The notes under the pieces: generated by a model
Databases searched by the model: none
What the model was told of the DNA's origin: nothing
Seen by the model: only the letters and a program-made list of their open reading frames with translations
Shown here: one piece after another, positions 1-13,020 of the stretch
Numbering within the stretch: the stretch's first letter is position 1
Layout of the letters: the number at the start of each line of letters is the position of its first letter
IMG/VR virus record: IMGVR_UViG_2693429623_000016
DNA from: a virus
Taxonomy: Duplodnaviria > Heunggongvirae > Uroviricota > Caudoviricetes
DNA: 13,020 nt
Reading direction: 5' to 3' (one strand)
Program-made: the position numbers and the translations under genes

Positions 1-30
1 AAACACTATCAATAAGTTGGAGTCATTACC
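1..30 (+). mobile_element. IS1 terminal fragment (3' end including right inverted repeat); the IS1 body lies upstream of the window
   Basis: Bases 1-30 (aaacactatcaataagttggagtcattacc) match the canonical 3' terminus of IS1 (…AAAACACTATCAATAAGTTGGAGTCATTACC) as I recall it; same orientation as the window. Confidence 0.8.
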
Positions 31-162
31 AAACGGTTGAAATGTATGCCGCTACTTACGGGTCCTGTAATCCTCTGAATAAACCAGAGGGAAAAGATGA
101 TTTCGACAAAATTTACCGCTTCTTGGAGGACCGCTATATCAAAAGCTTAGAGGACGCAGGGA

Positions 163-540
163 TCAAATCCCCAGTGAAGTCACCATTGTCCTGAGAACTT
201 GCAGAACGTCATGATCATAACTTCCATCCAAACCGCGACGGCGAATTGCTTCTCGTATTACCGGAAGCAGTTCGCTGGAAATCTCGGTGCATATTTCACC
301 TGATAATACGCTTGGCTCAAGTGAGAATATTGGTGAACTTACGGTCTTGGTCTCGACAGTTTCAGAGTCAGTGCCAACATTATAAAGCTCAACGAAAGCG
401 GTCTTGATTTTCCGGGCCAGATCTTTTGCTGGCTCGCTTGCAATATCTTTCCCGATTTCTCGCAGCACAGAATGCAATGTATGAGCTGCTGTTTTCTGTA
501 CATCAGACGGTAAATCTTTAAATTCCATCGTCAGCCTCAT
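163..540 (-). CDS. hypothetical protein (125 aa), distal gene of leftward early operon
   Basis: Six-frame ORF; its ATG (538-540) overlaps the TGA of the upstream minus-strand ORF (ATGA coupling). No recognisable motif. An in-frame ATG four codons downstream (MEFKDLP) is an alternative start. Confidence 0.45.
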   Translation of the reverse strand: MRLTMEFKDLPSDVQKTAAHTLHSVLREIGKDIASEPAKDLARKIKTAFVELYNVGTDSETVETKTVSSPIFSLEPSVLSGEICTEISSELLPVIREAIRRRGLDGSYDHDVLQVLRTMVTSLGI

Positions 541-692
541 CAGTCAGTGTTTCTGGCTAACCAGCAACGCGCGCCAGATTCGGTTTTAAACGTTTTGCTT
601 TTGGTATACGTCATGGCGGTAAACGTTCCATCCTGGTTAGGGAACACGCCGCACACCAGAGATTCGTTGTTGCCAAGATCGATAGTATCCAT
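540..692 (-). CDS. hypothetical small protein (51 aa from the ATG at 690-692; ORF is open to an ATG at 746)
   Basis: Minus-strand ORF just downstream of the OL-like operators. The internal ATG at 692 is preceded by a GAGG Shine-Dalgarno-like motif, whereas the ATG at 746 has none. Function unknown. Confidence 0.4.
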   Translation of the reverse strand: MDTIDLGNNESLVCGVFPNQDGTFTAMTYTKSKTFKTESGARCWLARNTD

Positions 693-872
693 GCTGACCT
701 CATTTCCCCTTAACGCCGGGGTGGCGGAACAAAAAACCTGCTGCATAGTTAAAGATTGAACCCTGCCGTCATGTTCTTACGCCTCGGGCTGGCTACTTAA
801 CCCCTGACCACTGTCTGGTAACTCGAAGTATTGCCCTGCATTCTGTGGGGCGGGGTGGGTTGACGCCTGAAA

Positions 873-914
873 CAATAGCATCATTATTTTTTTGATGTAA
901 ATAGCATCGCTATT
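873..914. promoter_or_regulatory. OL-like operator pair with candidate leftward promoter (PL-like)
   Basis: Two 15-bp palindromes: AATAGCATCGCTATT (900-914, perfect arms AATAGC/GCTATT) and AATAGCATCATTATT (874-888). On the minus strand a TTTACA -35-like hexamer (revcomp of 895-900) and a TATTGT -10-like hexamer (revcomp of 873-878), 17 bp apart, overlap the operators. Confidence 0.5.
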
Positions 915-930
915 GTTTTTTGTTGGGGCA

Positions 931-954
931 AGAAAAAACCACCCTAAGGTGGTT
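931..954 (-). terminator. rho-independent terminator after the toxin gene (minus strand)
   Basis: Minus-strand RNA AACCACC-UUAG-GGUGGUU forms a 7-bp stem with a 4-nt loop, followed by a U-rich tract (UUUUUC). It lies 16 bp downstream of the toxin stop codon (971-973). Confidence 0.6.
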
Positions 955-970
955 CTGTCGGCGGGAATAA

Positions 971-1261
971 TTAACTGTTTTTGCCTGGATACTGTCTTCG
1001 AGAATGCACAATATTTACTACTTCTATGCTTGATGCTGTTACTCGGTAAAGGATGATGTAGTTAGGATGAGTTACAATTTCACGAAGACCAAGAACTCGC
1101 TCGCTTGGAGGATACAGGTAAGGATGCTCTGTGAGCGGCAAAACGGATGTTTCAATTCGAATTTTCATTCTGCGTGCTGCCGCGGGATTTTCTTTAGCTA
1201 TGTAGGCTACGATCTGGCGCAAATCATCACGAGCAGATGGTAGCCATAAAACGGGTAACAT
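971..1261 (-). CDS. ParE/RelE-superfamily type II toxin
   Basis: 96-aa ORF with the size and sequence character of ParE/RelE toxins (MLPVLWLPSARDDLRQIVAYI…IILYRV…EVVNIVHSRR). Its start overlaps the stop of the upstream small ORF, the classic antitoxin-toxin arrangement. Assigned from recalled family features, not a search. Confidence 0.7.
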   Translation of the reverse strand: MLPVLWLPSARDDLRQIVAYIAKENPAAARRMKIRIETSVLPLTEHPYLYPPSERVLGLREIVTHPNYIILYRVTASSIEVVNIVHSRRQYPGKNS

Positions 1262-1455
1262 TATTCACCTCTGTGAGTTGCAGCAGCAATTTGGGCAATA
1301 ATTTGTTCCATTTCCGCCATTACCTCATCATGCGGAATCGCCGGGCGGGGATCCGCGAGGCTTGCTGCTACTTTGGCCCGCAGCCATTCGTTGTAACTAT
1401 TTTCTTGCTCAACTGTCTCAAATTCTGAAACCATTGGGGAAAGGACTGTACTCAT
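1261..1455 (-). CDS. type II antitoxin (ParD-like, cognate of downstream ParE-like toxin)
   Basis: 64-aa acidic ORF immediately upstream of and overlapping the toxin gene. A C-terminal segment (EWLRAKVAASLADPRPAIPHDEVMAEMEQII) resembles ParD-type antitoxins. Starts 17 bp after the repressor stop, so probably co-transcribed with the repressor. Confidence 0.6.
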   Translation of the reverse strand: MSTVLSPMVSEFETVEQENSYNEWLRAKVAASLADPRPAIPHDEVMAEMEQIIAQIAAATHRGE

Positions 1456-1474
1456 TTTACATATCTCCTCTGAT

Positions 1475-1975
1475 TTAGGCGCGACGGCCTTTTTGTGCAG
1501 CTAACCACCGCGCAACCGTACGATCCATTGATTCTTTTTTATCTTTCATCTCCTGAAGCATGTGTTCTTGATCTTCTTTCGGAAAAGCTCTGAACGTATG
1601 GATTAAATCTCGTTCCATCGGCTCTACGGCAAACGGTAGTTCATCCTCTGTTTGTTCTGTGTCTGCTGGTAATGCGACTATGTTATCTTGCTGTGGTTCT
1701 CGACAATACATCCTTGCAATTTGCAGCAAATCTACCATGTCTGGCCTGATTGACTCAGGGGGAACTTTCAGTAAGCCAGCAAACTTTAGAACAGCCTCAA
1801 GGTTTAGTGGGGTTTGACCATTTAGGTAGTGACTTACCGCCCCTTGTGTTGAAAACCCCATAATTTCCGCCGCACGTTCCTGAGTCAATCCCAACTGAGA
1901 TTTCTTTGCCATCCAGATTTCTTTCAGTCTTCTGGCGGCGTTGAGGTCGGTGTCTGACAATGATTTTCTTTTCAT
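1475..1975 (-). CDS. prophage repressor, HTH XRE family (RacR/cI-type, no S24 peptidase domain)
   Basis: HTH_XRE-like segment (LTQERAAEIMGFSTQGAVSHYLNGQTPLNLEAVLKFAGL). Transcribed divergently from the Cro-like gene across an operator-containing intergenic region. The ORF is open to a GTG at 2005; the ATG at 1973-1975 was chosen as start. No LexA-like Ser/Lys protease motifs are visible in the C-terminus. Confidence 0.75.
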   Translation of the reverse strand: MKRKSLSDTDLNAARRLKEIWMAKKSQLGLTQERAAEIMGFSTQGAVSHYLNGQTPLNLEAVLKFAGLLKVPPESIRPDMVDLLQIARMYCREPQQDNIVALPADTEQTEDELPFAVEPMERDLIHTFRAFPKEDQEHMLQEMKDKKESMDRTVARWLAAQKGRRA

Positions 1976-2010
1976 ACATCCAATTCTAATAAGATTGCTA
2001 ATCACTTTGA

Positions 2011-2053
2011 AATAGCATCACTATTTACTTTTAAAAATAACAGTGCTATTAAT
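2011..2053. promoter_or_regulatory. OR-like operator pair with candidate rightward promoter (PR-like)
   Basis: Palindromes AATAGCATCACTATT (2011-2025) and AATAACAGTGCTATT (2036-2050) share the half-site with the OL-like sites. Candidate -35 TTTACT (2024-2029), 17-bp spacer, then extended -10 TGcTATTAA (2044-2052), upstream of the Cro-like ATG at 2087. Confidence 0.5.
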
Positions 2054-2086
2054 TATGCATTGGTAACACATCACATAGGGCGGATT

Positions 2087-2350
2087 ATGAATCTTGGAGA
2101 ATATTTGCATCATTTTCATATAACCCAGAGTTCATTTGCTGAGATTGTTGGCGCATCCCAAGGGATGGTCAGCCACGTTATAACGGGGCGTGCAAAACTT
2201 ACAGGAGAAAAAATATTACGTTGGTGTGAAGCAACGGGATGGGTGGTGACCCCACATGAGATTGACAGTAAAACCTACCCCAACCCAACTGACGGCTTGC
2301 CTGCTGAGTTTCAGGCTAACACACAACCATCGGCGGGGGTTGATTCATGA
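2087..2350 (+). CDS. Cro-like small HTH protein (YdaS-like)
   Basis: Small ORF divergent from the repressor, with an HTH-like segment (SQGMVSHVITGRAKLTGEKILRWCEATG). An AGGG motif precedes the ATG at 2087; the ORF is open to a TTG at 2060. Its stop overlaps the next gene's start (ATGA at 2347-2350). Confidence 0.65.
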   Translation: MNLGEYLHHFHITQSSFAEIVGASQGMVSHVITGRAKLTGEKILRWCEATGWVVTPHEIDSKTYPNPTDGLPAEFQANTQPSAGVDS

Positions 2351-2772
2351 AAATCAAGCATGAACACATCCGCATGGCGATGAAAGCCTGGGCGCATCCG
2401 GACGGTGAAAAAGTTCCGGCAGCTGAAATAACCAGGGTTTATTTCGAACTGGGAATGACGTTTCCGGTTCTGCATAACGACAGCAAGCACAACACGCTTT
2501 ATCTCAACACCCAAAAGATTTTCCGTTGGCTGGATAAAGACACCCCTGACGCTGTTGAAAAAATTCAGGCGTTGTTACCTGCGATCGAAAGGGCAATGCC
2601 ACCTCCGCTGGTGGCTCGAATGCGCAGCCACAGTTCAGCTTATTTTCGGGAACTGGTGGAGACGCATGAACGACTGGTGAGAGACGCTGATGATTTTGTC
2701 GCAGTGGCAATCGCCGGTTTCAATCAGATGAACCGTGGTGGCCCGGCAGGAAATGCTGTGGCAGTACATTGA
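2347..2772 (+). CDS. YdaT-like protein (occupies the cII position in Rac-type immunity regions)
   Basis: 141-aa ORF beginning MKIKHEHI and ending …AVAVH, which matches my recollection of Rac prophage YdaT termini. Translationally coupled to the Cro-like gene. Assignment rests on recall and synteny only. Confidence 0.55.
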   Translation: MKIKHEHIRMAMKAWAHPDGEKVPAAEITRVYFELGMTFPVLHNDSKHNTLYLNTQKIFRWLDKDTPDAVEKIQALLPAIERAMPPPLVARMRSHSSAYFRELVETHERLVRDADDFVAVAIAGFNQMNRGGPAGNAVAVH

Positions 2773-2843
2773 CTGACAATAGCCATATCGAATCGCTCCC
2801 GGCAACTCGTGAGTAAAAAGATTCGGTATCAGAAGAGGTGAGT

Positions 2844-3908
2844 ATGGCTAACGCCTGGCTCAGATTATGGCATGACATGCCAAATGACCCTAAGTGGCGA
2901 ACAATTGCCAGGGTGTCAGGGCAGCCAATTGCAACAGTGATGGCAGTGTATATCCACCTCCTGGTGAGCGCGTCACGAAATGTCACGCGAGGTCACATTG
3001 ATGTCACGACAGAAGATTTGGCAAGTGCGCTCGACGTGACAGAAGAGGTAATTGATTCAATTTTGCAGACGATGCAGGGGCGGGTACTTGATGGTGATTT
3101 AATCACTGGATGGGAAAAACGCCAGGTGCTTAAAGAGGACAACGGCAATATTTCGCAAACCGCAAAATCTCCTGCAGAGCGCAAGAGGGCGCAGCGAGAG
3201 AGGGAAAGAAAGCGGGAACAAAATGGCGATTGTCACGGCGCGTCACGAAATGTCACGCACATGTCACGACGAGTCACGACAGATACAGATAAAGATACAG
3301 ATAAAGAAGATCAAAACACTATGGTCCATGGCGTAAAAAACGCCACGAACCAGGCAGGGGATGTTCAGACCGTCAATCCTGGTCAGCCAGCAGGCTCGAC
3401 ACCGGAAGCCGATTCAGCGTATGCGCTGAAAGCCGATTCGGGCGCTGTGCAGCAGGTGATGACCGCAAGGCCGGAGCAATCACTCCAACTGCAGCAGCCT
3501 GAAGCCGATTCCGCCATTCAGCGGGAAGCCGATCGGGTAGCCCCGGAAAACACCGGGCAGCCTGTGGGACGAGTGGATTATCCGGATGTGTTCGAACAGG
3601 TCTGGCGGGAATACCCGTTGCGTGCCGGGGCAAACCCGAAGAAATCCGCATTCAGTGCCTGGAAGGCCAGATTGCGCGAGGGGGTGCCACCAGAGACCAT
3701 GCTGGATGGTGTGAGGCGTTACGCGAGATACCTGGCGGCGACCGGGAAAGCGGGAACGGAATTTGTTCAGCGAGCGACGACGTTTTTTGGGCCGGACCGG
3801 AATTTTGAAAACCCCTGGTTGCTCCCGGTAAGCGGCACGAACAACCAGCGTTGTGTGAATCATATTTCTGAACCGGATACCGAAATTCCGCCGGGATTCA
3901 GGGGGTGA
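2844..3908 (+). CDS. phage replication initiator (lambda O analogue; YdaU position) containing internal origin-like iterons
   Basis: Sits immediately upstream of a DnaC-like gene, with RBS AGAGGTGAG before the ATG at 2844 (ORF open to a GTG at 2838). The middle is low-complexity and acidic, and the coding DNA carries iterons. The C-terminus ends …IPPGFRG just before the DnaC-like start; the same junction recurs at 5836-5856. Confidence 0.7.
   Translation: MANAWLRLWHDMPNDPKWRTIARVSGQPIATVMAVYIHLLVSASRNVTRGHIDVTTEDLASALDVTEEVIDSILQTMQGRVLDGDLITGWEKRQVLKEDNGNISQTAKSPAERKRAQRERERKREQNGDCHGASRNVTHMSRRVTTDTDKDTDKEDQNTMVHGVKNATNQAGDVQTVNPGQPAGSTPEADSAYALKADSGAVQQVMTARPEQSLQLQQPEADSAIQREADRVAPENTGQPVGRVDYPDVFEQVWREYPLRAGANPKKSAFSAWKARLREGVPPETMLDGVRRYARYLAATGKAGTEFVQRATTFFGPDRNFENPWLLPVSGTNNQRCVNHISEPDTEIPPGFRG
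2972..3008 (+). repeat. iteron cluster 1: four direct GTCAC(G/A) repeats at 10-11 bp spacing
   Basis: GTCACG at 2972, 2982 and 3003, GTCACA at 2992; an inverted copy (GTGAC) lies at 3045-3049. Confidence 0.6.
3232..3278 (+). repeat. iteron cluster 2: five direct GTCACG repeats at 10-11 bp spacing, followed by an AT-rich tandem motif
   Basis: GTCACG at 3232, 3242, 3252, 3263 and 3273. Immediately downstream (3284-3307) is gatacagataaa repeated twice within an A/T-rich stretch. Confidence 0.6.
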
Positions 3909-3914
3909 TGTGGC

Positions 3915-4716
3915 ATGAAAANNNNNNNNNNNNNNNNNNNNNNNNNNNNNNNNNNNNNNNNNNNNNNNNNNNNNNNNNNNNNNNNNNNNNNNNNNNNNNN
4001 NNNNNNNNNNNNNNNNNNNNNNNNNNNNNNNNNNNNNNNNNNNNNNNNNNNNNNNNNNNNNNNNNNNNNNNNNNNNNNNNNNNNNNNNNNNNNNNNNNNN
4101 NNNNNNNNNNNNNNNNNNNNNNNNNNNNNNNNNNNNNNNNNNNNNNNNNNNNNNNNNNNNNNNNNNNNNNNNNNNNNNNNNNNNNNNNNNNNNNNNNNNN
4201 NNNNNNNNNNNNNNNNNNNNNNNNNNNNNNNNNNNNNNNNNNNNNNNNNNNNNNNNNNNNNNNNNNNNNNNNNNNNNNNNNNNNNNNNNNNNNNNNNNNN
4301 NNNNNNNNNNNNNNNNNNNNNNNNNNNNNNNNNNNNNNNNNNNNNNNNNNNNNNNNNNNNNNNNNNNNNNNNNNNNNNNNNNNNNNNNNNNNNNNNNNNN
4401 NNNNNACAGCTACGACAACGGCAAATCCGGTGAAAAATTTTTACAGGAGCTTTGCGGGGTTGATTTGCTGGTCCTGGATGAAATAGGCATTCAGCGGGAG
4501 ACGAAAAACGAGCAGGTGGTATTGCACCAGATAATTGATCGCCGGACAGCATCACTGTGCAGTGTCGGGATGTTAACAAACCTGAATCATGCCGCAATGA
4601 GCACGCTTCTTGGTGAGAGGATTATGGACCGCATGACCATGAACGGTTGTCGGTGGGTGACGTTTAACTGGGATAGCTGGCGTTCAAATGTCAGCTTTCC
4701 GGGAGTTGTGAAGTAA
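3915..4716 (+). CDS. DnaC-like helicase loader, copy A (interior hidden by N-run 3922-4405)
   Basis: ATG at 3915 follows the O-like stop. After the gap the reading frame gives SYDNGKSGEKFLQELCGVDLLVLDEIGIQRETKNEQVVLHQIIDRRTASL…, homologous to the C-terminal half of the intact DnaC-like gene at 5863-6609. Stop TAA at 4714-4716. Confidence 0.7.
3922..4405. other. run of 484 N (assembly gap or masked sequence)
   Basis: Directly visible in the sequence. Confidence 1.
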
Positions 4717-4737
4717 TTTTTGTTGGAGGATGTTTTA

Positions 4738-5463
4738 ATGGAAACTGTATTTGACGCACTGAAAGCACTGAAAAGAGCCTCTTCACATGTGGTGGCGTCC
4801 CGCCTTGGAATCAGCCGTGAAGATGCGGTCAACGAACTGTGGAAACTGAAGCGCCGTGGTGAAGCGGATAACAAGGGTTCGATGTGGTGGCTGATTCAGG
4901 CTGGTGAAAGTGAACCAGTGTCACCGGTACCGAAAGTGACAGCGCAAATGCTGACTGAGGCGATTGAACAACATGGCCCACAAACGGCGGATGAGCTGGC
5001 ACTGATGTTCGGGATTACCTCCCGCCGGGCGAATTCATCGCTGGCCATGGCAATCAGCAAAGGGCGTCTGATTCGCGTGAATCAGGGCGGTAAATTTCGG
5101 TACTGCATACCGGGCGCTGATTTACCGGCAGAGCCGAAAGCCGCATCCATAGCGGAAACGGATGGTAAAGTCTTTCCTCAGCCAGCAGGTGTTGCGTTAC
5201 CGGTACAGGAAGCTGCAACACAGGAAGAAATTAAAACAGAAACTGTGGCGGACATTGTGCAGTCGTTGCCATCGTTCACCGAAACGCAAGCGGATGACCT
5301 GGTTTTACCATCGCTGCATATGGCAAACCGCGAACTGCGTCGGGCGAAAAGTCATGTCCAGAAGTGGGAGCGTGTCTGCGCCGCGTTGCGGGAGCTGAAC
5401 AAGCACCGGGATATTGTTCGACAGATTGTCGATTCCTCCGGTCGTATTGTGTCGGAAAAGTGA
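4738..5463 (+). CDS. hypothetical phage protein (242 aa) with winged-helix-like segments
   Basis: ORF with RBS GGAGGA (4725-4730) seven nt before the ATG at 4738 (ORF open to a TTG at 4720). Segments such as [25 protein letters not shown] and [28 protein letters not shown] suggest wHTH folds. Follows DnaC-like copy A. Confidence 0.5.
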
Positions 5464-5478
5464 TTGCCGGGGGCGCTT

Positions 5479-5616
5479 ATGGCAAAAGTATTTACACAGG
5501 AAGAGCGGGAAAAAATTAAGGGGCAGGTTGTTGAACTCGTACGCCAGAGTGGGCGCGAGACGTTACGACAACTGGAAGCTAAAACCGGGGCGACAAGATA
5601 TTTAATAAGCGTTCTC
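5479..5616 (+). CDS. partial CDS: N-terminus of a small wHTH-like protein, diverged paralogue of the 6624 and 7274 genes, cut off by an N-run
   Basis: MAKVFTQEEREKIKGQVVELVRQSGRETLRQLEAKTGATRY aligns with MAKPFTPEQREELKTRIVELVHQDGRVTIRQLSDETGISRA at 6624 and 7274. Ends at N-run 5617-5625. Confidence 0.4.
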
Positions 5617-5625
5617 NNNNNNNNN

Positions 5626-5856
5626 CAGGCATTGCGAAAACCGATTCGAACGGAGCAGGGCGCTAACGGGGCGATACGGGAACTGGAAAAATTCCGTCAG
5701 CAGGGTTTTACACCTGAGCAGGTGATTCGACACAGCATCGCCAATGAATACCAGGGTCTGTTCGCGCCGAAAGGTGTTCGGCCTGAGACGTTGCTCCGAC
5801 AGGTTAACACCGTCTCGTTGCCGGACAGTGCGATCCCGCCAGGCTTCAGGGGGTAA
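5626..5856 (+). CDS. partial CDS: C-terminus of a second O-type replication initiator, resuming after an N-run
   Basis: Ends …AIPPGFRG-stop at 5854-5856, then a DnaC-like ATG at 5863. This mirrors the 3'-end of the O-like gene and its junction with DnaC copy A at 3880-3917. The upstream part of this gene is absent. Confidence 0.45.
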   Translation, partial: QALRKPIRTEQGANGAIRELEKFRQQGFTPEQVIRHSIANEYQGLFAPKGVRPETLLRQVNTVSLPDSAIPPGFRG

Positions 5857-5862
5857 CAGACC

Positions 5863-6609
5863 ATGAAAAATATTGCGACAGGAGGCGTTCTGGAGCGTAT
5901 CCGCAGACTGACCCCACCACATGTAACCGCCCCATTCAGAACGGTTGCGGAGTGGCGCGAGTGGCAACTTGCTGAAGGCCAGAAACGTTGCGAGGAGATC
6001 AACCGCCTGAATCGTCAGTTGCGGGTGGAAAAAATCCTGAACCGCTCCGGCATCCAGCCGTTGCACCGGAAGTGTTCGTTTGCGAATTACCGGGCGCAGA
6101 ACGACGGTCAGCGACATGCACTGAGTCAGGCGAAATCCATAGCTGACGAACTGATGACAGGCTGTACGAATTTTGTGTTCAGCGGTAAGCCCGGCACCGG
6201 AAAAAATCATCTTGCAGACGCGATTGGCAACCGGCTGATGGCGAAGGGGCGTAGCGTGATTATCGTCACCGTGTCCGATGTCATGAGCGTGTTGCATGAG
6301 AGCTACGACAACGGCAAATCCGGTGAAAAATTTTTACAGGAGCTTTGTGGTGTTGACCTGCTGGTCCTGGATGAAATTGGCATGCAGCGGGATACGAAAA
6401 ACGAGCAGGTGGTACTGAACCAGATTGTTGATCGCCGGACGGCATCGTTACGCGGTGTGGGGATGCTGACAAATATTAACCATGCAGCGATGAATACACT
6501 TCTCGGCGAGCGGGTGATGGATCGCATGGTCATGAACGGCGGGCGCTGGGTGAATTTTAACTGGGAGAGCTGGCGTCCGAATGTTAGCCATTCGAGGGTT
6601 GTTAAGTAG
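5863..6609 (+). CDS. DnaC-like replicative helicase loader (AAA+; IstB/DnaC family), copy B, intact
   Basis: 248 aa with Walker A FSGKPGTGKNHLA and Walker B DLLVLDEIG. Collinear similarity to E. coli DnaC as I recall it (…NRSGIQPLHRKCSFANYR…LGERVMDRM…). Confidence 0.9.
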   Translation: MKNIATGGVLERIRRLTPPHVTAPFRTVAEWREWQLAEGQKRCEEINRLNRQLRVEKILNRSGIQPLHRKCSFANYRAQNDGQRHALSQAKSIADELMTGCTNFVFSGKPGTGKNHLADAIGNRLMAKGRSVIIVTVSDVMSVLHESYDNGKSGEKFLQELCGVDLLVLDEIGMQRDTKNEQVVLNQIVDRRTASLRGVGMLTNINHAAMNTLLGERVMDRMVMNGGRWVNFNWESWRPNVSHSRVVK

Positions 6610-6623
6610 TTTCAGGAGGATTT

Positions 6624-6808
6624 ATGGCGAAACCTTTTACTCCCGAACAGCGGGAAGAACTGAAGACGCGAATTGTGGAACTCGTGCATCAGGACGGTCG
6701 GGTCACGATTCGGCAGTTGTCAGATGAAACAGGTATCAGTCGTGCGTCTGTCGGTCGCTTATGCATGGAACTGGTCGCAAGTGGTGATGTATATAATTCT
6801 GGCTACGG
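6624..6808 (+). CDS. partial CDS: N-terminus of the small wHTH-like phage protein (copy B), cut off by N-run 6809-6819
   Basis: RBS AGGAGGA five nt before the ATG at 6624. Sequence is nearly identical to 7274-7458. Confidence 0.5.
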
Positions 6809-6819
6809 NNNNNNNNNNN

Positions 6820-7259
6820 TTGATGAAATTGGCATTCAGCGCGAGACGAAAAACGAGCAGGTGGTGCTGCACCAGATTGTTGATCGCCGGACAGCGTCGA
6901 TGCGCAGCGTGGGGATGCTGACAAACCTGAACTATGAGGTGATGAAAACANNNNNNNNNNNNNNNNNNNNNNNNNNNNNNNNNNNNNNNNNNNNNNNNNN
7001 NNNNNNNNNNNNNNNNNNNGATGAAATTGGCATTCAGCGCGAGACGAAAAACGAGCAGGTGGTACTGAACCAGATTGTTGATCGCCGGACGGCATCGTTA
7101 CGCGGTGTGGGGATGCTGACAAATATTAACCATGCAGCGATGAATACACTTCTCGGCGAGCGGGTGATGGATCGCATGGTCATGAACGGCGGGCGCTGGG
7201 TGAATTTTAACTGGGAGAGCTGGCGTCCGAATGTTAGCCATTCGAGGGTTGTTAAGTAG
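6820..7259 (+). pseudogene. DnaC-like C-terminal gene fragments (two partial copies flanking N-run 6951-7019)
   Basis: 6820-6950 encodes DEIGIQRETKNEQVVLHQIVDRRTASMRSVGMLTNLNYEVMKT, a variant of the DnaC core. 7020-7259 is near-identical to 6362-6609, the 3' end of DnaC-like copy B. Neither fragment has a 5' part. Confidence 0.5.
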
Positions 7260-7273
7260 TTTCAGGAGGATTT

Positions 7274-7643
7274 ATGGCGAAACCTTTTACTCCCGAACAG
7301 CGGGAAGAACTGAAGACGCGAATTGTGGAACTCGTGCATCAGGACGGTCGGGTCACGATTCGGCAGTTGTCAGATGAAACAGGTATCAGTCGTGCGTCTG
7401 TCGGTCGCTTATGCATAGAACTGGTCGCAAGTGGTGATGTATATAATTCTGGCTACGGGGTATTTCCCTCTGAACAGGCTCATAAAGACTGGCAAAACGC
7501 CCGCAAAAAGCTATCGAGGGTAAAGGTGAAGAAACCGGTTGTGGTTGATCCTGACCTTATCTGGTCATTACCAGACGGAGAAATACGCCGCTACGACAGG
7601 CGCCTGAATATAATCTGTCGCGAGTGCCGGAAGAGCGAAGCTA
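7274..7643 (+). pseudogene. small wHTH-like phage gene (copy B') truncated at its 3' end by the IS element
   Basis: Homology to the copy at 8915-9157 is lost after about position 7645, exactly where the IS terminal sequence (TGAGGT…) begins. The ORF then runs into the IS and ends at 7690. Confidence 0.6.
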
Positions 7644-7686
7644 TGAGGTGTACTGGCAATAGCGGACACTACCATTTGTTCTTTTT

Positions 7687-8592
7687 TTAAGCAGCCATCT
7701 GATGATATTTTTCCCTGAAGGCTGCCGGGGAGATATTCCCCAGACGAGAGTGACGACGCTGACGATTGTAGAAAATCTCAATGTATTCCCGTATTACTGA
7801 GATGGCTTCATCCCGGTTATTAAAACGATAGTGGCTCAGGCTCTCATTTTTCAGCGTTCCCCAGAAGCTTTCCATCGGAGCGTTGTCGTAACAGTTACCT
7901 TTACGCGACATTGATGTTTTCAGACCAGACTGCTCCTGTATGACCCGGTAATCGTATGCGCAGTACTGTGAACCTCGATCAGAGTGGTGGATTAGCCCGG
8001 CAGGTGGGCGCTGGCTCCTGAGCGCCATAAACAGGGCTTTACCTGTCAGCTCTTTTGTCATGCGCTCTCCCATGGCGTAGCCGACAATTTCGCACGTATA
8101 AACATCTTTGATGCCAGCGAGGTACAACCATCCCTCCTGTGTGGCAACATACGTCAGGTCCGCCACCCAGACCTGATTTGGTGCTGTAGGAGCGAACGTC
8201 TGGTTCAGCAGATTTGGCGCAACTGGCAGATTGTGGTTCGAGTTCGTAGTCGCTCTGAACTTGCGTTTCTGCTTACAGCGTAGCCTTAGCTCCTTACGAA
8301 GACGTGCCAGTCGGTCACGACCAACGATGATGCCATTCTCTGCCAGCTCCGTCTGGAGCCGCCGGGTTCCATATGTTTCGCGAGTGCGGATATGTGCCAC
8401 CTTAATCTCCAGTTTTAGCCGCTCATCACTTTGTTTTCTGTCTGAGGGTTCATGCTGTACCCAGTTGTAATAACCGCTCCTGGATACACCAAATACCTGA
8501 CACATCGCTTCAATGGGAAATTGTTGTCGCCATTGTTCGATTAACGCGTATTTTTCAGCGACTCCTGTGCAAAATACGCTGTTGCTTTTTTT
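7687..8592 (-). CDS. IS3-family transposase OrfB (DDE/rve integrase core), expressed as an OrfAB fusion by -1 frameshift
   Basis: DDE integrase-like sequence (…WVADLTYV…HHSDRGSQY…NAPMESFW…). The orfB frame is -1 relative to orfA. Slippery heptamer A_AAA_AAA at 8586-8592 (minus strand) lies within the orfA codons tta-aaa-aaa-gca. Confidence 0.85.
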   Translation of the reverse strand, partial: KKSNSVFCTGVAEKYALIEQWRQQFPIEAMCQVFGVSRSGYYNWVQHEPSDRKQSDERLKLEIKVAHIRTRETYGTRRLQTELAENGIIVGRDRLARLRKELRLRCKQKRKFRATTNSNHNLPVAPNLLNQTFAPTAPNQVWVADLTYVATQEGWLYLAGIKDVYTCEIVGYAMGERMTKELTGKALFMALRSQRPPAGLIHHSDRGSQYCAYDYRVIQEQSGLKTSMSRKGNCYDNAPMESFWGTLKNESLSHYRFNNRDEAISVIREYIEIFYNRQRRHSRLGNISPAAFREKYHQMAA

Positions 8593-8843
8593 AATATATC
8601 TCGCTCAAGGCGAGCTTCATTTAACGCCTTACGCAGTTGCAGAATTTCAGATTCCAGTTCAGCCACCGTGCGGGAACCAGGAGTACCGAGCCCTTTTCTG
8701 GCGGCGGTAACCCATTGTCCTAAAGTGCCTTCAGGAAGAGATAATCGGGAAGCGCCTTCACTGATCGAAAGTTGATTTTCAAGAACCGTTCTGACAGCTT
8801 CGGCTTTGAACTCTTTAGAGTAACGTTGGGTTTTTCTGCTCAT
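8541..8843 (-). CDS. IS3-family transposase OrfA (HTH DNA-binding and leucine-zipper part)
   Basis: 100-aa ORF MSRKTQRYSKEFKAEAVRTV…LERDILKKATAYFAQES, typical of IS3-family OrfA. Recalled as IS600-like. Confidence 0.85.
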   Translation of the reverse strand: MSRKTQRYSKEFKAEAVRTVLENQLSISEGASRLSLPEGTLGQWVTAARKGLGTPGSRTVAELESEILQLRKALNEARLERDILKKATAYFAQESLKNTR

Positions 8844-8914
8844 TATTAGCTCCTTCTGATGCCATTCTATTTCAGGAAGGAGTGTCCGTTAAACTCAGGC
8901 TACCTCANNNNNNN

Positions 8915-9157
8915 TACGGGTTATTCCCGTCTGAACAGGCTCGTAAGGACTGGCAAAACGCCCGCAAAAAACTCTCGAGGGCAAAGCTGAAGAAACCATC
9001 TGTGGTTGATCCGGACCTTATCTGGTCATTACCAGACGGAGAAATACGCCGCTACGACAGGCGCCTGAATATAATCTGTCGCGAGTGCCGGAAGAGTGAA
9101 GTTATGCAGCGTGTACCGGCTTTCTATCAGGGTGATTTTCAGGAGGCGGTACTGTGA
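8915..9157 (+). CDS. partial CDS: C-terminal part of a diverged paralogue of the small wHTH-like phage protein
   Basis: …GLFPSEQARKDWQNARKKLSRAKLKKPSVVDPDLIWSLPDGEIRRYDRRLNIICRECRKSEVMQRVPAFYQGDFQEAVL is about 90% identical to 7459-7643. The 5' part is absent; the sequence resumes directly after N-run 8908-8914. Confidence 0.5.
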   Translation, partial: YGLFPSEQARKDWQNARKKLSRAKLKKPSVVDPDLIWSLPDGEIRRYDRRLNIICRECRKSEVMQRVPAFYQGDFQEAVL

Positions 9158-9214
9158 GTGAAATTAGCTATCAGGCTTCAATTACCGCTGGCATTCGCAT
9201 CAAAGGAGAGGAGC

Positions 9215-9571
9215 ATGGAAATAAAACCAGAAGATGAGTTAAGCAATATTGTTTTATTTCCGGTAAAAGAGGATAACCCTCGTAATCAGGTTAATTTTCT
9301 TTATGAGCCATCGGAAAGACCATATTGCCATCACGCTTCTGTCCGGGTTGACGAAAAAGAGCGTCAGGTCCGCTGTAAAATTTGCGGTGCAGTTGTGGAG
9401 CCATTTGACTGGATGCTCTCTGTGGCGAAAAGAGAAACCAGACTGGCAGATGATGTAAGGCTCTTGCGCCAGGAGGAGCGGGAAAGGCGAAAAAATATAG
9501 AAAAGCTAATCCAGATTGAGCGTAATGCGAAAGCGCGGATACGCAGGGTGACAAAATATAGCCCCGAATAA
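9215..9571 (+). CDS. hypothetical protein with putative zinc-ribbon and basic coiled-coil C-terminus
   Basis: RBS AGGAGAGGAG at 9204-9213 before the ATG at 9215. Cys/His cluster (YCHHASVRVDEKERQVRCKICG) followed by a charged helical segment (RLLRQEERERRKNIEKLIQIERNAKARIRR). Alternative GTG start at 9158 with AGGAGG at 9141-9146. Confidence 0.5.
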   Translation: MEIKPEDELSNIVLFPVKEDNPRNQVNFLYEPSERPYCHHASVRVDEKERQVRCKICGAVVEPFDWMLSVAKRETRLADDVRLLRQEERERRKNIEKLIQIERNAKARIRRVTKYSPE

Positions 9572-9785
9572 TCAAGGTTATTTCTGGAAGTCAAGTCGTG
9601 AGTGATGAGGACTAACAAATACGGTGAACTCGATAAAGAGATTCAGGACGAACTGGAGGCCAGGAATGATTGACAAATCACCAAGTGAGTTCAGCTACAA
9701 AGATTTATTGTCATAACGGGTTATGAGATCGACTTGGTGCGTGATATTCTTCGGGCCAGTTTGCTATGCGCCACCATGAGATGTT

Positions 9786-11758
9786 ATGGCCCGCATGTTT
9801 GATACATTAGGATTTTACATTATGAATGTGCAACATTTTGATTTTTTTACAGATAATGAGTTTTCTAATCTGGAAAGATATCAAACTTGTAAAGCCATGG
9901 CCAAAGGTTATGCGGGCAATTACAAAACCGGGCAGTCAAGGTTGATGCATGCCCGCTCATACTGCTTCAGCATCGTAGCTGCATATTGGGATACCCTTGC
10001 AAAAAAGCAAAAAAGCAGCATTAAAATGAGGGCAGTACCGCACACTGTTTACATAGAAGACATTCCATGTGATGCACGCGAGCTCGCTGAACGAACAGGT
10101 GAGCTTATTGCTCAATTTCCGGCGGAGGACGCTGGATATCTGATTGGGTCAATTTATACGGTAATGCTGCCATCCGCTTACCGTTCGGAATTGGGGGCTT
10201 ACTATACCCCCCCACCTTTGGTAGCGCGTCTCTTGGACCTGGCTGAAAAGTCTGGTGTTGATTTTTCTCATGCATCGGTTATTGATCCTGCGTGTGGTGG
10301 CGGTGCATTTTTGGCACCAGTAGCCATTCGAATGTTAAAAAAAGACAAGGGGTCTTCCCCTGAATGGATGTTGAGGAGAATCAGTCGTCGTTTAAAGGGG
10401 ATAGAAATCGATCCATTTGCGGCTTGGATGAGTTTGGTATTGCTCGAATCTGTACTAATGCCACTATGTGTAAAGGTAAAACGTAGATTGCCTGAAGATA
10501 CAATTATTGTTGCTGATGCGCTTCAGCAAGATAAATTTTCTGGTTATGATCTTGTGGTAGGGAATCCGCCTTACGGACGTGTCACTCTCGATATTAAAAC
10601 GAGAGAAAAATATTCTCGTTCGTTATTTGGTCATGCAAATCTATATGGATTGTTCACCGACTTAGCTGTTCGCATGGTTAAANNNNNNNNNNNNNNNNNN
10701 NNNNNNNNNNNNNNNNNNNNNNNNNNNNNNNNNNNNNNNNNNNNNNNNNNNNNNNNNNNNNNNNNNNNNNNNNNNNNNNNNNNNNNNNNNNNNNNNNNNN
10801 NNNNNNNNNNNNNNNNNNNNNNNNNNNNNNNNNNNNNNNNNNNNNNNNNNNNNNNNNNNNNNNNNNNNNNNNNNNNNNNNNNNNNNNNNNNNNNNNNNNN
10901 NNNNNNNNNNNNNNNNNNNNNNNNNNNNNNNNNNNNNNNNNNNNNNNNNNNNNNNNNNNNNNNNNNNNNNNNNNNNNNNNNNNNNNNNNNNNNNNNNNNN
11001 NNNNNNNNNNNNNNNNNNNNNNNNNNNNNNNNNNNNNNNNNNNNNNNNNNNNNNNNNNNNNNNNNNNNNNNNNNNNNNNNNNNNNNNNNNNNNNNNNNNN
11101 NNNNNNNNNNNNNNNNNNNNNNNNNNNNNNNNNNNNNNCCTGTTTTCTTAATGTATTAAAACAGATGTCTACGCGTTTAGCTGATCTGGGATACTCAGTC
11201 TCTACAGGTCAGTTAGTCTGGAATCGATTTAAGTCGCAGTTGCGTACGACGAAAGGAAAAAATAGCTACCCATTAGTCTGGGCGGAATCAATAACTTCAG
11301 CTGGTTTTCGTTTTAGTGCAGACAGAAAAAATCATGTTCCCTATATCGATATAACCCCACAACAGGGTTTCCTTGTGACAAAATCTGAATGTGTGCTTGT
11401 TCAGCGGACAACATCGAAGGAACAGGACAGAAGGATTTTAGCGGCAATTTTACCTCAGGGATTTATAGATGAAACTGGTGGCGTAGTAGTTGAAAACCAT
11501 ATTAATATTGTATATTCAAACGGATTGTTCTCTGCGGTTCGCCCTGATGTTATTGATATGCTACTTAATTCGCATGTTGTCGATCGGGCGTTCAGGTGTA
11601 TAAGCGGAAGTGTTGCTGTTTCGGCCTATGAATTGAATTCAATCCCGTTGCCTTCTCTGGAGCAGGTGATGGAGATTCAATCGTTAATTGATGCTGGCGT
11701 CCACAGACGGATTATTGAGAGAACTATCGCTGGTTTCTATGGAGTGATGATTGCATGA
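9786..11758 (+). CDS. N6-adenine DNA methyltransferase, gamma class (Eco57I/TaqI-like catalytic domain plus C-terminal target-recognition domain); middle hidden by N-run 10683-11138
   Basis: Motif X-like GAYYTPPPLVARLL, motif I DPACGGGAFL and motif IV VVGNPPYG occur in that order. After the N-run the frame is open back to the gap and encodes a TRD-like region (LADLGYSVSTGQLVWNR … AYELNSIPLP). The two halves are in different frames relative to the N count, so gene continuity is inferred rather than seen. Confidence 0.75.
10683..11138. other. run of 456 N inside the methyltransferase gene (assembly gap or masked)
   Basis: Directly visible in the sequence. Confidence 1.
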
Positions 11759-12837
11759 ATCTGCCTGTTGTTCCCCCATTGAATGTTATCCGGGAAAGAT
11801 TACAATTAATTTTCCCTGAAGGGACTGAGAATCGTGGATATTTAATTCGGGAAATAGCTGCAAAAACAATTTTTGTCATGTTTTATGCTGGTGCGGTTGA
11901 GGGGCTGGGGCGATGGATAAGGCCCAGCCAGGTTGTAAGTATGGGAGATTCGCAGGCTGCTCTTACTGATGATGCGTCCAGAGAAAGCTGGGTAAAGATG
12001 ACTTTCTCTAAACAAAAGATAAGGCCTGCTGATGCATGGTATGCGGAAAATACGCGTGAGCCAATACGTGATGAAACTATAAAAAATGGCCTAATACCTT
12101 GCAATGCAATTGTTGAGCGTAAAGGTATACCCACCACATCCTCTCGTCCTCGTTACAGTTTGAATCGCTCTTTTGCAGCACTCTTTGATGCCGGGCTTGA
12201 AGGAGATTCGCTGCTGAGTGCAATAAGTTCCTGGCAAGAAAATCATTTGAACAAAGCCGCTCTTGCTAGGTTGCGTTTATTGAAATCAGGGGCAGTGATT
12301 GCTGCTGATGCCGTAGTCGTCACTTTCCCAAATGGAGAGAAGAGAACTTTAGCTCCGGGCCCGTCAAGTACAATAGCTAAGGCCGTCATCGAAGTTTTTG
12401 CTCCTAATTTTCTTAAGAATCCAACTGTGCTCTGGTTGTCTGAATCCGGGAATAAAGTTGTTGCTCAGGATGATGTATTGGCAAAAGCATTGGGGCTGAA
12501 TATTGATGCCTCAAAAGCACTTCCAGATATTATTTTGATTGATTTGGGAGAGGACCGAACGGGTTCGGACATGCTTGTAGTTTTCACTGAAGTAGTTGCG
12601 ACAGATGGGCCTATAAACAGGGAACGAAAAGTTACTCTCACTCATTTGGCTATTGACGCTGGGTTCAGCGAGAAAAATCTTGCATTCCTTACGGCATTTA
12701 TGGACAGAAGTGCTCTGCCTTTTAAAAAGGCAATACCAGAATTGGCGTGGGGATCTTATGCATGGTTTGCTTCTGAACCGGAGCACTTAATTGATCTTCG
12801 GGATGGTTATCCGGTAAAGATCAGCCAGAGAAAATGA
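11755..12837 (+). CDS. putative Type II restriction endonuclease (BsuBI/PstI-like?), partner of the methyltransferase
   Basis: 360-aa ORF whose ATG overlaps the methyltransferase stop (ATGA at 11755-11758). N-terminal segment IFPEG…AAKTIFVMFYAGAV…AENTREPIRDE resembles what I recall of BsuBI/PstI-family nucleases, which typically pair with Eco57I-type methyltransferases. No canonical PD-(D/E)xK motif was confidently identified. Confidence 0.5.
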   Translation: MNLPVVPPLNVIRERLQLIFPEGTENRGYLIREIAAKTIFVMFYAGAVEGLGRWIRPSQVVSMGDSQAALTDDASRESWVKMTFSKQKIRPADAWYAENTREPIRDETIKNGLIPCNAIVERKGIPTTSSRPRYSLNRSFAALFDAGLEGDSLLSAISSWQENHLNKAALARLRLLKSGAVIAADAVVVTFPNGEKRTLAPGPSSTIAKAVIEVFAPNFLKNPTVLWLSESGNKVVAQDDVLAKALGLNIDASKALPDIILIDLGEDRTGSDMLVVFTEVVATDGPINRERKVTLTHLAIDAGFSEKNLAFLTAFMDRSALPFKKAIPELAWGSYAWFASEPEHLIDLRDGYPVKISQRK

Positions 12838-12989
12838 CCAAAGTTTGATATCCGCCACGCCCTGAAGGATGGGGGTTTTACGGTGCACTGGATAAAAAAT
12901 CGGTTTCATAGATTTGCCCACCGTGGTATACGCCTGCGATAAAAACTTTATTGTCATCAACGGCAAAAGCAATAATTGTTCTGTGGCGG

Positions 12990-13020
12990 GGTGATGCTGC
13001 CAACTTACTGATTTAGTGTA
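12990..13020 (+). mobile_element. IS1 terminal fragment (5' end including left inverted repeat); the IS1 body lies downstream of the window
   Basis: Bases 12990-13020 (ggtgatgctgccaacttactgatttagtgta) match the canonical IS1 5' terminus GGTGATGCTGCCAACTTACTGAT…; same orientation as the fragment at 1-30. Confidence 0.8.

Follow-up and report, generated by a model that had tools for sequence, protein, structure and literature searches.

Reiterated replication-module pieces in a Shigella sonnei prophage scaffold: a probable repeat-induced assembly chimera

Does a prophage remnant of Shigella sonnei carry several copies of its replication module, or have pieces of related prophages been written into a single scaffold? 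The question is raised by IMG/VR virus record IMGVR_UViG_2693429623_000016, a stretch of 13,020 nucleotides (hereafter the window) in which parts of DnaC-like helicase-loader genes, replication initiator genes and a small winged helix-turn-helix gene (DUF977) recur within a few kilobases. A sequence-only reading of this DNA had favored the merging of related prophages by assembly or scaffolding and had left an amplified replication module open. We compared the window base by base with deposited record CXCR01000135.1 (GCA_001259815.1, Shigella sonnei) and found it to be the complete record, every base being the same; the N-runs therefore belong to the original deposit. Comparison with closed genomes leads us to conclude that the region is very probably a chimera produced by repeats during the assembly and scaffolding of a short-read S. 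sonnei draft, and not a duplication.

Six N-runs split the window into seven pieces, S1 to S7 (Table 1). The three runs named in the sequence-only reading (5617-5625, 6809-6819 and 6951-7019) are all present, and a further three (3922-4405, 8908-8914 and 10683-11138) had been missed. The problem had been placed at 3915-7458; it is indeed present there, and it reaches on to 8914, taking in an IS600 element and the 7-N join that follows it. Three paralogous prophage modules, P1, P2 and P3, are needed to account for the pieces. In what follows, L010, L022 and L031 denote P1, P2 and P3 of the closed genome CP032523.1; L023 and L034 denote P2 and P3 of S. sonnei 53G (HE616528.1); L029 is from CP104423.1; the drafts L018, L020 and L021 are CWVT01000151.1, CXBH01000142.1 and CXDR01000259.1, respectively; and L019 is the record of the window itself.

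Four of the pieces share one home. The exact protein encoded by the DUF1627 gene of the window occurs in thousands of samples, and nine chromosome-length records (4.8-5.0 Mb) stand among the matches listed. In 9/9 of these, the P1 locus has the same gene order: ParE/PaaA2, a helix-turn-helix repressor, an 87-aa protein, YdaT, a 354-aa O-like protein, a 248-aa DnaC-like protein, DUF1627, a 140-aa DUF977 protein, a 118-aa protein, a 610-aa methyltransferase and a 360-aa BsuBI/PstI-type endonuclease. S1, S2, S6 and S7 are colinear in CP032523.1 at 99.7-100% identity and constitute one prophage module; P1-like colinearity, at lower identity, is also seen in E. coli M3. The distance between S2 and S6 is 42 bp in the closed genome (L010 10879-10922), and the scaffold holds 3,298 positions there (5617-8914). 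The true gaps are thus 429, 42 and 316 bp, as against 484 N, 3,298 positions and 456 N in the scaffold. Since 484 N stand for 429 bp and 456 N for 316 bp, the N lengths are estimates. Masking by software was also considered as a source of the N-runs and was ruled out, because the deposit and the window agree at every base and the N-runs are not equal in length to the sequence they stand for.

The reading frame of DUF977 fits the 42-bp gap, with S2 ending 138 nt into the gene, at codon 46, and S6 beginning at nucleotide 181 and continuing in frame up to the stop codon. In draft L018, moreover, S2, the 42 bp and S6 are contiguous with zero N. On these comparisons, the true sequence at the site would be S1, 429 bp, S2, 42 bp, S6, 316 bp and S7, that is, a single replication module.

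The interposed pieces have homes elsewhere. The exact protein encoded by DnaC-like copy B is found in closed genomes including 53G and CP032523.1, within the second prophage, P2, where the order is Cro, YdaT, YdaU (DUF1376, 399 aa), DnaC-like B, a 138-aa DUF977 cut by IS600, and IS600. S4 is found exactly at position 8506 inside an intact ydaV-type gene (8001-8747) in each of the eight P3 loci L029-L036, which include those of CP032523.1 (~2.973 Mb), 53G and CP104423.1; exact copies of it also occur in E. coli FDAARGOS_943, in E. coli FDAARGOS_944 and in S. flexneri. A search for homologous proteins with the P3-type loader returned zero identical representatives, the best being 96%. In CP032523.1, P1 lies at ~4.077 Mb and P2 at ~4.156 Mb, so that P2 is 79.7 kb and P3 1.10 Mb distant from P1. 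The proposal that related prophages were merged is supported: S2 and S6 stand next to each other in nine closed chromosomes, and what the scaffold interposes between them matches two other loci at ~100%.

The IS600 copy belongs to the IS3 family, with orfB at 7687-8505 (Pfam rve) and orfA at 8541-8843 (HTH_Tnp_1), both on the minus strand; it is 100% identical to the L010 copy and 99.4% identical to an E. coli copy annotated 'IS3-like element IS600 family transposase'. The element truncates the DUF977 gene of P2 to give a 138-aa product (7274-7690), which databases list as 'DUF977 family protein [Shigella sonnei]', and this DUF977::IS600 arrangement is found in closed genomes as well. Directly after it, from 10396, L022 reads TAATGACTCCAACTTATTGATAGTGTTT, which we take to be an IS1 terminus. 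The YdaU gene of P2 is interrupted in CP032523.1 by a further IS600 copy (L022 6242-7505) and is intact (399 aa) in 53G (L023); the load of insertion sequences (IS) in these prophage remnants differs among strains.

A near-identical direct repeat of about 430 bp had also been noted. It is present: by direct comparison, 6370-6808 equals 7020-7458 over 439 bp with 4 mismatches, far beyond chance, and a repeat finder returned 6370-6669 and 7020-7319 at 99%. S3 and S5, however, overlap by these same 439 bp on L022 (8508-8946). Because the two pieces map to one overlapping locus, the direct repeat is L022 8508-8946 written twice, that is, one P2 stretch rather than two genomic copies. A second repeat, 7454-7645 with 8915-9106 at 92%, lies on both sides of IS600 and the 7-N run.

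Table 1. Pieces, gaps and joins of the window, and the position of piece ends relative to blocks shared among the P1, P2 and P3 modules.
Feature	Position	Strand	Source and content
S1	1-3921	+	Left part of P1; 100% identical to L010 5319-9239; 30 nt of IS1 end, DUF1391, ParE/PaaA2, cI-like repressor, Cro-like, YdaT, O-like, 7 nt of DnaC-like A
Gap	3922-4405		484 N inside DnaC-like copy A; true sequence 429 bp (L010 9240-9668)
S2	4406-5616	+	P1; 100% identical to L010 9669-10879; 3' end of DnaC-like A (to 4716), DUF1627 (4738-5463), 5' part of DUF977 to 5616
Join of P1 to P2, read as false	5617-5625		9 N
S3	5626-6808	+	From P2; 100% identical to L022 7764-8946 and to S. sonnei 53G; YdaU/DUF1376 C-terminus (5626-5856), DnaC-like copy B (5863-6609), DUF977 codons 1-62 (6624-6808)
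Join of P2 to P3, read as false	6809-6819		11 N
S4	6820-6950	+	From P3; 131-bp internal fragment of ydaV-type DnaC-like gene
Join of S4 to S5, read as false	6951-7019		69 N
S5, whole	7020-8907		Maps to L022 8508-10395 at 99.7%
S5, first part	7020-7643	+	P2 3' end of DnaC-like B, then DUF977 from 7274; P2/P3 mosaic
S5, second part (IS600)	7644-8907	-	Complete, 1,264 bp
Join of IS600 end to P1, read as false	8908-8914		7 N
S6	8915-10682	+	P1; 99.7% identical to L010 10922-12689; DUF977 from codon 61 to stop at 9157, 118-aa gene (9215-9571), 5' part of methyltransferase
Gap	10683-11138		456 N inside methyltransferase gene; true sequence 316 bp
S7	11139-13020	+	P1; 100% identical to L010 13006-14887; 3' part of methyltransferase, BsuBI/PstI-type endonuclease (11755-12837), 31 nt of IS1 end
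S2 start			2 nt before 47-nt P1=P2 block (copies A and B)
S3 start			First base of 131-nt P2=P3 block
S3 end			Last base of 41-nt P2=P3 block
S4 end			3 nt before 265-nt P2=P3 block
S5 end			Last base of IS600
S6 start			Inside 12-nt P1=P2 block, 6 nt before 23-nt P1=P3 block

The ends of the pieces were then set against the stretches that the three modules have in common. Comparison of P2 with P3 in the closed genome gives an identical block of 131 nt upstream of the loader gene and others of 265 nt and 41 nt that run from the 3' end of this gene into DUF977 as far as codon 62; P1 and P2 share an identical block of 47 nt inside the loader gene. Most piece ends fall on the edges of such blocks or of IS600 or IS1, or within a few nucleotides of them (Table 1), which is the pattern that would be expected from a k-mer assembler halting at near-identical repeat branches.

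Alleles at the sites that discriminate P2 from P3 reveal mixing within the contigs themselves. S3 is P2-type at 110/110 of these sites and S4 is P3-type at 20/20. S5 is a mosaic in which the sites run P3 (3 sites), P2 (18), the shared 265 nt, P3 (1, window 7417) and P2 (15); its P3 alleles lie at 7034, 7040, 7043 and 7417, and all of its allele switches fall within shared blocks of 20-265 nt. At all 4 positions where S3 and S5 differ, the S5 base is the P3 allele of the closed genome. In S6, positions 9061-9070 carry five bases of P2/P3 type (GGCGCCTGAAT), the P1 type being GACATCAGAAC in closed genomes, L018 and L020; all five mismatches between S6 and L010 are confined to this patch, which reflects either an assembly error that mixed paralogues or gene conversion over a short tract. 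The copy switches had been assigned to the N-runs, and N does stand at the joins between paralogues, but chimerism also occurs inside pieces that are free of N, namely the S5 mosaic and the S6 patch.

The loader genes supply a measure of how far the modules have diverged. Sequence comparison places them in the DnaC/IstB-like AAA+ type (PF01695), YdaV type, and they are predicted to encode helicase loaders; Walker A and B motifs (GKPGTGKN and LLVLDEIG) are present in the DnaC-like translation. Copy B (5863-6609), an intact IstB/DnaC-like gene of 248 aa, scores 66.1 bits against PF01695 (cut-off 24.1), and the 3' fragment of copy A scores 25.9 bits against the same cut-off. At least two DnaC-like variants had been recognized from the sequence, of which copy B is intact and copy A (3915-4716) mostly N, with just 7 + 311 real bases; the paralogous modules are three in number, not two. 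The span of copy A, 802, does not divide by 3, since its N-run exceeds the 429 bp that it replaces by 55. Protein identities among the loaders are 83% for A and B, 81% for A and P3 and 88% for B and P3, and this range of 81-88% indicates three distinct paralogues. The segments at 6820-6950 and 7020-7259 are C-terminal fragments of DnaC-like genes, as had been supposed.

The initiators required a reassignment. The segment 5626-5856 had been taken for a second O-type C-terminus; it is the C-terminus of an initiator, but of the YdaU/DUF1376 family and not of a second copy of the 354-aa O-like protein. The 76 residues encoded by 5626-5853 recur unchanged within the 399-aa PF07120 (YdaU/DUF1376) protein of S. 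sonnei 53G, and the likeness between YdaU and the P1 O-like protein is confined to the last 19 residues (68% identity; ...PPGFRG). This shared tail precedes the loader gene in both the P1 and the P2 module; as a speculation, it may be a segment that contacts the loader. The O-like protein of P1, in a 356-aa reading from GTG 2838, had zero Pfam matches at E <= 0.01, and the name 'phage replisome organizer' for the gene at 2844-3908 (354 aa) rests on the RefSeq annotation of homologues that are 93-95% identical at the nucleotide level. Other Pfam matches in the window are YdaT at 2347-2772, DUF1627 at 4738-5463 and the IS3-family element on the minus strand.

Several N-termini of the small winged helix-turn-helix gene had also been described, and DUF977 does start at 5480, 6624 and 7274. 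Its profile, PF06163 (YdaW-like winged helix; cut-off 22.1), matches 7274-7687 with 104.7 bits and 6624-6806 with 54.7 bits. The prediction of chimeric open reading frames (ORFs) likewise holds, in that 5479-5856 is called as a 125-aa gene across N.

How might such a scaffold arise? All of the non-colinear joins (5617-5625, 6809-6819, 6951-7019 and 8908-8914) are N, with zero sequenced junctions among them, and from this together with the repeat edges we infer a mechanism based on read pairs. A genome with three defective lambdoid prophages would hold three paralogous modules, each with an initiator, a DnaC/IstB-like loader and DUF977. The assembler would break contigs at the edges of their identical blocks, with multi-copy IS600 and IS1 adding further repeats, and reads from the shared 3' region of DUF977 would be pooled. 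Read pairs from P1, P2 and P3 would then all point to S6, and a greedy scaffolder would chain S2 (P1), S3 (P2), S4 (P3) and S5 (the P2/P3 mosaic and IS600) ahead of S6 (P1), with N gaps of estimated length.

The accession series and the pattern of N-runs suggest that the record was probably produced by a Velvet/SSPACE/GapFiller pipeline. That pipeline, the Sanger assembly pipeline, uses Velvet, SSPACE and GapFiller in sequence, and Page et al. (2016, PMC5320598) caution that its greedy steps 'can lead to false joins'; the 299 S. sonnei assemblies reported with it have a mean of 405 contigs (PMC5320598). Whole-genome shotgun prefixes CXBN, CXBR and CXBV, near CXCR, belong to S. sonnei isolates of the Holt et al. 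2012 collection (PMC5447701). The window resembles the false joins of greedy pipelines (PMC5320598) in its N joins of estimated length, its breaks at repeats and IS elements, its chaining of paralogous contigs and the single-N joins of sister assemblies; it differs in that the within-contig chimerism of the S5 mosaic and the S6 patch exceeds a pure scaffolding error.

Several points weigh against an assembly chimera. The closed reference genomes come from isolates other than that of the window. Neither the end of S2 (5616) nor the start of S4 lies on a long shared block, and the breaks there are unexplained. The record's accession was not found in the supplements of PMC5320598, and the software is undocumented for this record. 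Furthermore, L019, L020 and L021 share a rare A at the 7417 site, and P2/P3 pieces stand beside P1 pieces in L019 and L020 alike; a lineage-specific event could also give either pattern.

Such an event would be a recombination in the clade of the sister drafts by which P2/P3 DNA was moved or converted into the DUF977 region of P1. In all three drafts, the A at 7417 occurs in linkage with the P2-type DUF977::IS600, and the Ile-variant protein that it yields (WP_052977980.1) is known from these 3 drafts, as against 113 contigs, closed chromosomes included, with the usual Met form; P2/P3 pieces are placed side by side in all three; and the 10-bp patch of S6 resembles a short conversion tract. The drafts nevertheless conflict on which pieces are joined and where. 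In L020, the P1 sequence runs unbroken across both the loader gene and the 42 bp, and a different interloper, consisting of a P3-type loader, the shared block, the 3' part of a P2-type DUF977 and a partial IS600, is attached through single-N joins at 5857 and 8233; its insertion point in DUF977 is not the same as that of the window. In L021, a P3 contig is tied to a P2 contig by a single N. The arrangements of L018, L020 and L021 thus conflict with the window and with each other, and all joins in L019, L020 and L021 are N. The A at 7417 is the P3 allele of the closed genome, and the shared block between it and the P2-specific sites (41 nt) allows a k-mer graph to cross over; the S6 patch is missing from both sister drafts that cover the site (L018 and L020). 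We therefore consider a recombination of this kind very unlikely. Taken more broadly, any real conversion tract among the three modules in that clade (the A at 7417 or the 9061-9070 patch), or a real insertion of P2/P3 DNA in P1, has a marginally better though still slender chance. A real recombinant junction from S3 to S6, formed by unequal crossing-over between P2 and P1, was considered separately and rejected, as the two loci share 12 nt there and S3 and S6 are not adjacent.

True local amplification, in which the isolate would hold tandem, partly truncated copies of the module at P1 as written, appears less probable again. The pieces do share one orientation and one record, as would a genuinely reiterated gene set on one strand within a few kilobases, and N lengths that are only estimates could conceal missing junction sequence. 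No candidate junction is sequenced, however, as every one is N. The supposed copies are paralogues, 81-88% identical as proteins, that match three separate closed-genome loci at 100%; the sole pair at 99% is the same P2 stretch given twice, one rendering having P3 alleles; and duplication offers no plausible source for an exact 131-bp fragment of P3 enclosed by two N-runs. In contrast to a genuine tandem amplification, the units are unequal in extent and paralogous, and each piece is at home elsewhere. The arrangement of the window is absent from all closed genomes examined; among 5,426 complete E. coli genomes, a set that does not include Shigella, none has at least 80% of the window in one place, and the matches to complete E. 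coli genomes, at 83-99.9%, show single modules.

A mixed template, in which two S. sonnei strains or a heterogeneous culture supplied S3 and S5 as versions of one locus, would account for a 439-bp overlap with 4 differing sites but is scarcely credible, since the four S5 bases are P3 alleles of a closed single-strain genome, which makes a second strain unneeded, and closed genomes match the remainder of the scaffold at 100%.

The assembly chimera, then, is the reading that we retain, and the surroundings of P1 can be described on that basis. The record termini (1-30 and 12990-13020) consist of 30-31 nt that match sequence flanking IS1 genes in closed genomes, and we take both to be IS1 terminal repeats; with IS1 at either terminus, the scaffold would stop at a multi-copy IS on both sides. 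IS1 copies flank the P1 remnant in closed genomes. From the flanking genes, a dmsC-like gene and clcB on one side and a mannitol dehydrogenase gene, ydfZ, a GntR-type gene, a short-chain dehydrogenase gene and dcp on the other, P1 presumably occupies the Qin prophage site of the E. coli K-12 map. P1 also carries a restriction-modification pair (window 9786-12837) composed of an N6_Mtase/Eco57I-like methyltransferase (610 aa) and a BsuBI/PstI-type endonuclease (360 aa), with both genes intact in the majority of the closed genomes listed. A ParE-toxin/PaaA2-antitoxin pair (971-1455, minus strand) adjoins the prophage repressor gene (1475-1975), and a gene of the YdaT 'toxin family' lies at 2347-2772.

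P1, P2 and P3 all resemble the Rac/Qin-type lambdoid module, with YdaT, an initiator, a 248-aa IstB/DnaC-like ATPase and DUF977, for which the names annotated in E. coli are YdaU or 'phage replisome organizer', YdaV 'ATP-binding protein' and DUF977. P1 differs in that a DUF1627 gene is added between its loader and DUF977 genes, and in an O-like initiator that has no Pfam match, and P2 features a DUF1376/YdaU initiator. Identical proteins of the three modules occur in hundreds to thousands of assemblies. The modules are ordinary, their proteins are not new, and the reiteration is very probably not a real feature of the genome.

The biological weight of the region is accordingly small, given that each module is present, identical, in many closed S. 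sonnei genomes. It does serve as a warning on data quality: the scaffold yields a fusion ORF that is called as a gene (5479-5856), combining the N-terminus of the P1 DUF977 protein with the C-terminus of the P2 YdaU protein, and this 125-aa fusion call and WP_052977980.1 illustrate how artefactual or doubtful proteins enter public collections. Scans of IS-rich drafts for duplications, gene fusions or changes in copy number would return such regions as false positives. If the conversion or insertion reading were true, on the other hand, it would mean that defective prophages in a single Shigella chromosome are still exchanging DNA.

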